Shown: piece after piece, positions 3,829 through 5,557 of the stretch
How the letters are laid out: the number at the start of each line of letters is the position of its first letter
Position numbering within the stretch: the stretch's first letter is position 1
Source: a virus
Taxonomy: Duplodnaviria > Heunggongvirae > Uroviricota > Caudoviricetes
Direction: 5' to 3' (one strand)
DNA length: 11,055 bases
IMG/VR virus record: IMGVR_UViG_2695420804_000018
Notes under the pieces: generated by a model
Databases searched by the model: none
Told to the model about the DNA's origin: nothing
The model's input: only the letters and a program-made list of their open reading frames with translations
Position numbers and translations under genes: made by a program

Positions 3829-4665
3829 ATGAGGTCTGACGCTGTTGTAGTAGTTCAATATGTAATCATTAATTTGCTGCCGGGCCTCGTCCTTGCCTGC
3901 GTAACCATTCGTTGGCACCCATTCTGTTTTCAGACTGCGGAAGAAGCGTTCCATGGGGCTGTTATCCCAGCAGTTTCCCCGCCGACTGACGCTTTGATTT
4001 ATTCTGCAACGCCAGAGAAGTTGTTGATATTTAAGGCCTGTATACTGGCTTCCCTGGTCGCTATGGAACACGACATCCCGGGGTTGGCCACGCGTCTCAT
4101 AGGCCATCCGCAGGGCACTGCTTATCAGTGCGGTATCGGCATGCGCTGACAGACTCCAGCCGATAACCCTGCGGGCAAAAAGATCCATAACAACCGCCAG
4201 ATAGCACCAGCGATTTCCTGCCCAGAGATACGTAATATCTCCACACCATACCCGGTCTGGCTCCGGTACTGCGAACTGACGCTCAAGCAGATTCGGCAGG
4301 CTGGTATGCTCCTGACGGGCATTTTTATACTGATGTTTTCCGGGCTGACAACTGCTCAGGTTCAGATATTTCATCAGACGTCCGGCACGGTAACGGCTCA
4401 TCGGGACGCCGTTTTGAGTCAGCATTTCAGCCAGAGTGCGCGCGCCCGCAGAGCCCCGACTTTGGTTCCACGCCCGGCGTATTTCGCTGCACAACCTGAC
4501 TCGTGCCGGATTAACCGTATCGCGTCGTTTTCGCCAGTACCGGTAACTGCTGCGGTGTATTTCCAGAGCAGAACACAGGCTGACAACCGTGTGGCTGTCA
4601 CTTAGTCTGGCGGCTATCGTGAACCGTTCAGCGAGTCGGACATTAAGAGCGCGGTAGCCTTTTTT
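3829..4665 (-). pseudogene. IS3-family transposase OrfB (DDE catalytic domain), 3'-truncated; runs into the crossover site
   Basis: -1 frame relative to orfA; the expected conserved C-terminal motif after ...YYNSVRPH is replaced by module sequence (LLPNQRL, stop at 3805-3807 inside the crossover site). Confidence 0.75.
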
Positions 4666-4925
4666 AATATCGTATTTTGTTCCTCCAGACGGCGAACTTG
4701 CTTTTCCAGCTCGCGGATACGTTGCTGGTCTGGAGTAATGGGTGTGGCAGAGGGCGTAATACCCTGGCGCTCTCGCCTGAGCTGGCGTACCCAGCTCTCA
4801 AGCGTGGTTGAACCGACATTCATCGCTTCACTGGCCTGTCGATATGAGTAGCCCTTATCAACAATCAGCTGTGCACATTCCAGCCTGAACTCAGGGGTGA
4901 AGGTTCGTTTGGTTTTCTTGTTCAT
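4614..4925 (-). CDS. IS3-family transposase OrfA (HTH subunit), 103 aa
   Basis: [55 protein letters not shown]...; the frameshift motif lies near its 3' end. Confidence 0.85.
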
Positions 4926-4997
4926 TAAGTCACCTGTTTTGTGTTGTGGTGAGAATATCACCTTTCATCAGGTGGCCAAATTTAGTGTGCCACTACA

Positions 4998-5557
4998 TCC
5001 GCCTGTTATCGGCACTGTTGCCGCCCGGTCCGGCGTGGTCAGCCAGCGATCCGGCGATTGCCGGTGCGGCACCGTCATTAACCCGTGTTCATCAGCGTGC
5101 GGATGCCCTGATGCGGGAGCTGGATCCGCGCACCACCACCGAACTGATAAACCGCTGGGAGCGTCTGTGCGGCCTGCCGGATGAATGTATTCCCGCAGGG
5201 ACACAGACCCTTCGCCAGCGTCAGCAACGGCTGGATGCGAAGGTTAACCTGGCGGGCGGCATCAACGAGGATTTTTATCTTGCACAGCTTGCTGCCCTGG
5301 GCAGACCAGATGCCACCATCACGCGATACGACAAAAGCACCTTCACCTGCTCATCGGCCTGTACTGACGCGGTGAATGCGCCGGAATGGCGGTATTACTG
5401 GCAGGTCAACATGCCAGCTGCCACCAACACCACCTGGATGACATGTGGTGATCCCTGTGATTCCGCACTGCGTATCTGGGGCGACACCGTTGTCGAGTGT
5501 GTGCTTAACAAACTCTGCCCTTCGCATACCTACGTAATTTTTAAATATCCGGAGTAA
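4998..5557 (+). pseudogene. phage baseplate/tail protein (Mu gp48 / e14 YmfQ-like, DUF2313-type), N-terminus removed by the IS
   Basis: Reading frame ...[13 protein letters not shown]...[15 protein letters not shown]... ends 3 nt before the tail-fibre gene start, the syntenic position of Mu gene 48 and e14 ymfQ; the ORF-track start at 4946 lies inside the IS terminal repeat; the family call is from memory and synteny. Confidence 0.6.

Follow-up and report, generated by a model that had tools for sequence, protein, structure and literature searches.

The P region of the e14 prophage of Escherichia coli K-12 has the gene order ymfQ-stfP-tfaP-tfaE-stfE-pinE and is inverted by Pin, and phage Mu carries a G segment with Gin. 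The locus described here resembles both, and its genes receive the names pinE, tfaE and ymfQ from the PGAP annotation pipeline. We take its architecture to be the same as that of e14 and Mu: a wedge gene, the constant part of a fibre gene, a 26-bp site, two opposed pairs of fibre tip and chaperone genes, an inverted site and a serine invertase. It differs from e14 in its chromosomal site, which is ssrA rather than icd, and in its wedge gene, which is cut by an insertion sequence (IS).

Two further relatives define what an undamaged version of the locus looks like. In phage SfV (NC_003444), residues 10-194 of the orf20 product are 100% identical to the wedge protein encoded here, the DNA is 95-99% identical through the fibre constant part (orf21), and the 3-nt spacing between the two genes is the same. 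SfV differs in having a full orf20 of 194 codons, starting MDVTNDDYIRLL, behind gp47/46/45-type genes, and in lacking pix sites, an invertible segment and pin. E. coli PEC122 (NZ_CM168021) carries an intact SfV-like prophage at ssrA, about 35 kb long, one end of which likewise reads hyp343-hyp114-hyp70-pinE-invertible fibre segment. Unlike the present locus, it has the full 194-aa YmfQ and keeps about 30 kb of further genes for the baseplate, tail and head, for lysis and for early functions, together with int. After YmfQ these genes are gp47, gp46, V, hub, N, tape measure, tube, sheath, the HK97-type head genes, terminase, lysis genes, Q, early genes and int, and this part of some 30 kb is absent from the lineage studied here.

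We analysed a stretch of 11,055 nt (the window; all positions refer to it) that is listed as IMG/VR virus record IMGVR_UViG_2695420804_000018. Judged from these comparisons, its fibre gene and truncated ymfQ (ymfQ') belong to a remnant of about 5.5 kb of an SfV-like temperate phage with a Mu-type tail, located beside ssrA.

Segment map and scaffold joins

The window is the end (about 11 kb) of CXZN01000041.1, a record of 34,448 bp in the E. coli draft assembly GCA_001284765.1. Comparison with the reverse complement of this public record showed that all bases are equal except those at positions 3829, 6469 and 8655, which are N in the record and A in the window. When the window was aligned by BLAST to the reference genomes of E. 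coli CD45 (NZ_CP182220) and 602687 (NZ_CP189657), it divided into four blocks, all collinear with a single reference locus and each 99.9-100% identical to 602687 or CD45. A single unmatched base stands at each block boundary, where the A fits neither flank in the reference genomes. The blocks and joins are as follows.

Positions 1-3828, forward: block 1, reference 6001-9828.
Position 3829, no strand: placeholder base of a single-N scaffold join, N in the record, matching neither flank of the reference genomes.
Positions 3830-6468, reversed: block 2, reference 13780-11142, contiguous real sequence with the IS, ymfQ' and the tail-fibre gene.
Position 6469, no strand: second single-N scaffold join, between the interior of tfa and the interior of the 70-aa open reading frame (ORF) downstream of pin, N in the record.
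Positions 6470-8654, no strand assigned: block 3, repeat assembly in inversion state B (hyp70'-pin-pix-Sv2-tfa2-tfa1'), 602687 positions 8807-10991.
Position 8655, no strand: third single-N scaffold join, between the interior of tfa and the interior of pin, N in the record.
Positions 8656-11055, no strand assigned: block 4, repeat assembly in inversion state A (pin'-pix-Sv1-tfa1, then tfa2 and Sv2, both on the minus strand, pix, and the fibre constant part on the minus strand), CD45 positions 9422-11821.

Since the three boundary bases are N in the record, the joins are scaffold gaps that were never sequenced as junctions. Single Ns within a whole-genome shotgun 'contig' count as ambiguous bases and not as gaps, and some scaffolders put one 'n' where a contig overlap is predicted but absent. 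Non-templated A residues, as left by dA-tailing in a ligation chimera or by a template switch (an MMBIR or tandem-inversion-duplication product), were also considered for these positions, and were dropped because the record has N there.

The four blocks sum to 11,052 nt, whereas only about 7.8 kb of the reference is tiled. The redundant overlaps between blocks measure 407, 624, 1022 and 1183 nt, plus 76 nt of the fibre constant part, and they are identical (100%) from the crossover dinucleotide of the pix site onward. The source genome carries one locus, not three, represented by four contigs joined by single-N gaps. This chaining of contigs is the source of the three pin 'copies' and of every apparent truncation, namely those of two tfa genes, of the third pin and of the IS. 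The left end of the window coincides with the smpB start codon and is followed by ssrA/tmRNA (positions 698-1060) and a low-GC island; the three cargo ORFs beside ssrA gave no match with PADLOC or Pfam.

A search of 5426 complete E. coli genomes with the whole window (megablast) found none that held more than 71% of it in one place, although the region itself was found everywhere. The junction between the pin-pix end and the interior of the IS was likewise absent, as a single aligned piece, from the 5426 genomes. Four genomes that seemed to span a pin|IS query matched it in two pieces about 430 bp apart; the prophage concerned is P2-like and unrelated, and carries this IS within its invertible segment.

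The scaffold order would be biologically true if a Pin event at secondary sites, or some other rearrangement, had inverted IS-ymfQ'-fibre beside pin and parts of the module had been triplicated. Such an event would fit the apparent activity of Pin and the fact that the left piece stops exactly at the end of a pix site (position 3828), where an invertase product would break; a contig end at this position is, however, also expected where the two inversion states diverge. Conservative site-specific recombination makes no duplications, and the 'copies' are 100% identical and jointly tile one 7.8-kb reference locus in two inversion states. Moreover, two of the three joins lie inside the coding sequences of tfa, pin and ORF70, with no pix-like site. 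As all three junctions are N in the record, none of them sequenced, and as no such junction occurs in the 5426 complete genomes, we regard a true scaffold order as extremely unlikely.

Position 3829, which the initial annotation had taken as the left boundary of the rearranged region, is accordingly neither an IS end nor a rearrangement junction: positions 3828 and 3830 are not connected by uninterrupted sequenced bases. That annotation had also proposed two tail modules, a degraded copy on the plus strand and a complete one entering on the minus strand from beyond the right edge, and had suggested a search for intact baseplate genes past position 11055. The fibre constant part does occur twice in the window, at positions 5789-5864 (plus strand) and 10980-11055 (minus strand). 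The two are identical, though, the contig stops 2 nt past position 11055, and the matching complete genomes have one copy, which leads to ymfQ'::IS::ypjA'. The chance that a second module exists is therefore negligible in our view, and what appears as a minus-strand copy is this one locus read in its native orientation. With the references running into the same ymfQ' and the same IS, the predicted true continuation of block 4 is the reverse complement of positions 5788-3830. The annotation had further allowed that the contig order might be wrong, with a full set of tail genes lying upstream of the plus-strand copy elsewhere; the contig order does lack support, but a full set of tail genes is not present upstream.

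Native context of the remnant

Once the redundant blocks are set aside, the locus comprises the following features.

Positions 3193-3747, minus strand: pinE, serine invertase of 184 aa, whose native neighbour is the invertible segment and not the IS.
Positions 3802-3827, plus strand: pin-proximal pix site of 26 bp, TTTTCATAAACG TT GGTTTGGGAGAA, with redundant copies at 7465-7490 and 9036-9061.
Positions 3830-4997, minus strand: IS911-like IS of the IS3 family, nucleotides 1-1168 of 1258, with the last 90 bp (end of orfB and right inverted repeat, IRR) missing.
Positions 3830-4662, minus strand: orfB frame of the IS with an rve/DDE domain (Pfam), cut after ...YYNSVRPH.
Positions 4614-4925, minus strand: orfA of the IS, 103 aa, HTH_Tnp_1 (Pfam).
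Positions 4972-4997, minus strand: left inverted repeat (IRL) of the IS, TGTAGTGGCACACTAAATTTGGCCAC..., whose tip at 4997 is the true IS/ymfQ junction.
Positions 4998-5557, plus strand: ymfQ', baseplate wedge gene of the SfV orf20/Mu gp48 type without its first 7-8 codons (Pfam, PHROG and SfV alignment).
Positions 5561-6322, plus strand: tail-fibre gene, with the constant part to about 5849 and the variable part Sv1 after the pix site.
Positions 5838-5863, plus strand: fibre-proximal pix site of 26 bp, CTCTCGAAAACC TT GGTTTGGGAGAA, recurring inverted at 10981-11006.

In the complete genomes of E. coli 602687, CD45 and PS1Thumoskin9 (NZ_CP180607), the order is ssrA, hyp343, hyp114, hyp70 (minus), pinE (minus), the invertible segment, the fibre constant part (minus), ymfQ' (minus), a complete IS (plus), ypjA' (an N-terminal fragment), pinH', ypjCB and ileY. 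These genomes are 99.9-100% identical to the window and share its ymfQ'::IS junction, but they have a single copy of the locus with a complete 1258-bp IS followed by ypjA', and the order and extra copies of the window are absent from them. PGAP annotates the locus in these genomes with 'YmfQ family protein', 'IS3 family transposase', 'pinE' and tail fiber assembly genes. The native order places the invertase beyond the fibre genes from the IS and not adjoining it. In the source strain, the 3' end of the IS and ypjA' probably come next, as the three near-identical complete genomes suggest.

The initial annotation had assigned the plus-strand tail-fibre gene to a degraded prophage remnant, which is borne out by PEC122, where the intact relative occupies this site at ssrA. 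Its proposal that the upstream genes were replaced by the IS and then by the invertase module holds in its first part, the IS standing where PEC122 has baseplate, tail and head genes; the second part fails, since the join between the IS and pix-pin is an N gap and the complete genomes have ypjA' next.

The truncated wedge gene

The product of ymfQ' scores 94.2 bits with PF10076 (Phage_Mu_Gp48), for which the curated cut-off is 37.4, and the match spans profile positions 3-149 of 150. A second match, at 1.3e-81, is to phrog_203 ('baseplate wedge subunit'). Alignment with SfV orf20 shows that 21-25 nt have been lost, corresponding to 7-8 codons (MDVTNDD[Y]) of 194 and not to the first ~10-20 codons as previously proposed. 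The exact breakpoint is ambiguous inside TACA (positions 4994-4997), which is common to the IS tip and the native DNA. The gene is neither full length nor preceded by a gp47-type gene, the IS lying upstream here and gp47 in SfV and PEC122. An in-frame GTG at position 4985, within the IRL end of the IS, opens a hybrid ORF of 190 aa, annotated by PGAP as 'YmfQ family protein' where it occurs in the complete genomes. As the initial annotation had stated, the frame is uninterrupted, with its stop codon at positions 5555-5557 and the tail-fibre ATG at position 5561, 3 nt on. No gap interrupts the sequence around the junction between the IS and ymfQ', and the three complete E. coli genomes contain this junction with 100% identity.

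The insertion sequence

The IS has the two overlapping ORFs of the IS3 family, with PF01527 (HTH_Tnp_1) in OrfA at 1.2e-12 and PF00665 (rve) in OrfB at 2.9e-27 (Pfam). A heptamer for -1 frameshifting, A AAA AAG, lies in the orfA frame at positions 4665-4659 and would give an OrfAB protein of 392 aa; PGAP marks a 'programmed frameshift' at the IS in the complete genomes. Complete copies of the element are 1258 bp long and are bounded by imperfect inverted repeats of the TG...CA type, with IRL TGTAGTGGCACAC... and IRR ...GACCACTACA. The window contains the IRL only, without the IRR. The tip of the IRL, TGTAGTGGCAC, ends at position 4997, and three other copies of the IS part from the window exactly after this base. 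In megablast alignments other copies seemed to match for 11-14 nt past position 4997; direct inspection shows divergence right after 4997, so that the extension is due to chance. At its other end the IS is cut 90 bp before the IRR because the contig stopped there. The sequence 'LLPNQRL*' at the end of the orfB ORF of the window is a spurious read-through over the N into the pix site.

The copy of the IS on plasmid pMB8093_2 is flanked by a 3-bp target-site duplication (GGC/GGC). No such duplication flanks the copy between ymfQ' and ypjA', where the flanking triplets are GGA and GTG; we read this as a sign of deletion or recombination and not as evidence against membership of the IS3 family. 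The element resembles IS911 in size class (1258 bp against 1250 bp for IS911), in the layout of OrfA and OrfB, in the A AAA AAG heptamer, in the TG...CA imperfect inverted repeats and in the 3-bp duplication, but its OrfAB is only 52-54% identical to that of an element labelled 'IS911 family' by PGAP. By these features of its sequence, it is an IS911-like yet distinct element.

The invertible tail-fibre segment

Pin is a serine recombinase, with matches to PF00239 (1.5e-51) and to the C-terminal HTH_7 domain PF02796 (3.6e-13) in Pfam. Inverted 26-bp sites at positions 9036-9061 and 10981-11006 flank Sv1-tfa1 and tfa2-Sv2. The likeness of the fibre gene to SfV orf21 collapses at the pix site, at about position 5840. 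Both orientations of the segment were seen: CD45 and 602687 differ by the inversion, and both states are also present in the source assembly. All four configurations, namely pin|Sv1, pin|Sv2, fibre constant part (Sc)|Sv1 and fibre constant part|Sv2, occur in this one assembly. The two kinds of pix site have only 15 identical nt in common, which is shorter than the usual assembly k-mers. With so short a shared stretch, the four configurations imply that both orientations must have been in the reads, and hence that Pin was still active in the remnant. Pin thus appears to be still inverting the fibre segment.

Origin of the truncation

Among the 5426 complete E. coli genomes, the ymfQ'::IRL junction was found in 3 and the IRR::ypjA' junction in 197, the latter including O104:H4. 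In two of the latter genomes, O104:H4 FDAARGOS_349 and M8, the IRL adjoins instead a truncated GTPase gene that belongs to a different island. Since the IRR::ypjA' junction is common to 197 genomes without the ymfQ' junction, the IS was probably at ypjA before the ymfQ' junction arose, the change being confined to its IRL side. The far wider distribution of the IS::ypjA' junction, together with the absence of a target-site duplication, favours a deletion mediated by the IS over its simple insertion.

The alternative is a plain insertion of the IS in ymfQ, the upstream prophage genes having been lost independently and not by an IS-mediated deletion. This would agree with the position of the IS tip within the coding sequence of ymfQ and with the ready insertion of IS3-family elements, the same IS having entered a P2-like prophage of another genome, within its invertible fibre segment. 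Here, however, the 3-bp duplication that the element makes elsewhere is missing, the flanks are two unrelated genes, ymfQ and ypjA, and the junction with ypjA' exists in the 197 genomes independently of ymfQ'; we consider a plain insertion highly improbable. The initial annotation had described an IS3 insertion that decapitates the gp48/YmfQ gene: an IS3-family element does abut the gene, at a real junction shared by three complete genomes, but deletion is favoured over insertion.

The analysis shows the Ns in the record, the map of the segments, where the IS ends, how much of ymfQ is missing, how frequent each junction is, and that an intact relative exists. From these results we infer the following order of events, deletion mechanism and scaffolder behaviour, and hold the account as a whole, of one IS-truncated remnant, a deletion, two inversion states and single-N mis-scaffolding, to be very likely correct. 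The IS would already have been resident at the truncated ypjA before the prophage was lost. A deletion of about 30 kb, most likely caused by this resident IS, would then have joined its IRL to codon 8 of ymfQ, removing the prophage from gp47 through int and whatever separated the prophage from ypjA. It may have started from the resident copy as an adjacent deletion, or have come about by RecA recombination between that copy and a second one inserted in ymfQ; the final structure fits both routes alike, and the intermediate expected for the two-copy route, ymfQ with a simple insertion of the IS, was not found among the 5426 complete genomes. Pin, still flipping the fibre segment, would have produced a culture with both orientations, which would have been assembled as four overlapping contigs. 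A mixed population would explain the contig break exactly at position 3828, the redundant contigs and the conflicting scaffolder links. The scaffolder would have chained the contigs by single Ns and placed the piece with the partial IS, ymfQ' and the fibre gene backwards. The rendering of N as A accounts for why the window appears to have a pin|IS junction, a truncated IS and more than one copy of pin and of the fibre module.

One could also see in the remnant a maintained cassette, given the active Pin switch, the two intact tip/chaperone pairs and a wedge gene with a complete Pfam domain and an IS-derived GTG. It could then provide co-resident or superinfecting SfV-like or P2-like phages, or a tailocin, with alternative fibres or wedge subunits. 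A scan of positions 4700-5700 for promoters and terminators gave no sites, and no sigma-70-like promoter was found upstream of ymfQ' there; this and the rarity of the junction (3/5426) count against a maintained cassette, and we think it very unlikely.

Significance for database records

The locus adds little new biology: an IS-bounded prophage remnant with a flipping tail-fibre switch is familiar, e14 being the textbook case, and the ymfQ'/IS locus is already known from the RefSeq annotation of complete genomes. Its lesson concerns the data. Draft joins made with a single N and shown as 'A' give rise to false junctions, a falsely truncated IS, a false triplication of genes and chimeric ORFs. 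Any reading of the window that rests on the pin copies, the tfa truncations or positions 3829, 6469 or 8655 needs to be re-read. A look-up of the 222-aa and 64-aa versions of the chimeric ORFs gave no match. The chimeric pin::tfa ORF across position 8655 (210 aa from MLIGY), an apparent 'fusion' of Resolvase and Caudo_TAP, is already in public protein collections.

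Inversion of the tail-fibre segment

The 26-bp recombination sites (pix) flanking the variable fibre parts Sv1 and Sv2 were found in all four possible configurations (4/4) within a single assembly, at the following window positions.

pix-site configurations in the window
5838-5876, fibre/Sv1
7465-7503, pin/Sv2
9036-9075, pin/Sv1
10968-11006, fibre/Sv2

Both orientations were therefore present in the sequenced culture, and the serine invertase Pin is still active in a remnant lacking the rest of the phage. Midway along the invertible segment, the 3' ends of the two convergent tail-fibre assembly genes, tfa1 (+) and tfa2 (-), share 29 nt (10094-10122, and again at 8349-8377).

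Chimeric ORFs

ORFs called across the placeholder bases that join the contig pieces ('N' in the public record, 'A' in the window) are chimeras.

ORFs crossing a placeholder
3805-4494, -, chimeric ORF
6319-6513, +, chimeric ORF
6421-6657, -, chimeric ORF
8349-8981, -, chimeric ORF

The ORF at 8349-8981, a 210-aa 'Resolvase + Caudo_TAP' fusion, has been entered in a public collection as a called gene product, and the domain architecture of this chimera is spurious.

Genes between ssrA and pinE

Three low-GC ORFs occupy the interval between ssrA and the invertase gene pinE.

ORFs of the ssrA-pinE interval
1270-2301, +, 343 aa, phrog_6191 (unknown function)
2353-2697, +, 114 aa, without family
2782-2994, -, 70 aa, without family

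Only the first of the three could be assigned to a family, and none matched in Pfam or PADLOC. The same three ORFs form the ssrA-proximal end of the intact prophage of E. coli PEC122, which identifies them as phage cargo. A short recombinase fragment, pinH', is 84% identical to the window pin (3478-3624) and lies just past the truncated ypjA in reference genomes (14710-14877 in the E. coli 602687 locus); an earlier prophage in the same region probably left it behind.

The IS3-family element

The IS of the window (transposase WP_085968792.1) also occurs in a P2-like prophage (NZ_CP026085.1, locus positions 4049-5874), inserted within its invertible tail-fibre segment and adjoining a different serine invertase. 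This second instance of the IS landing in a fibre switch is independent of the first.

Within the window IS, a full-length match to Rfam isrC (RF01387; 150 bits) was detected at 4807-4929 (-), beginning 4 nt 5' of the orfA ATG and spanning orfA codons 1 to approximately 40. What this 'Hfq-binding sRNA' family matches here is the transposase mRNA of an IS3-family element, at its 5' end.
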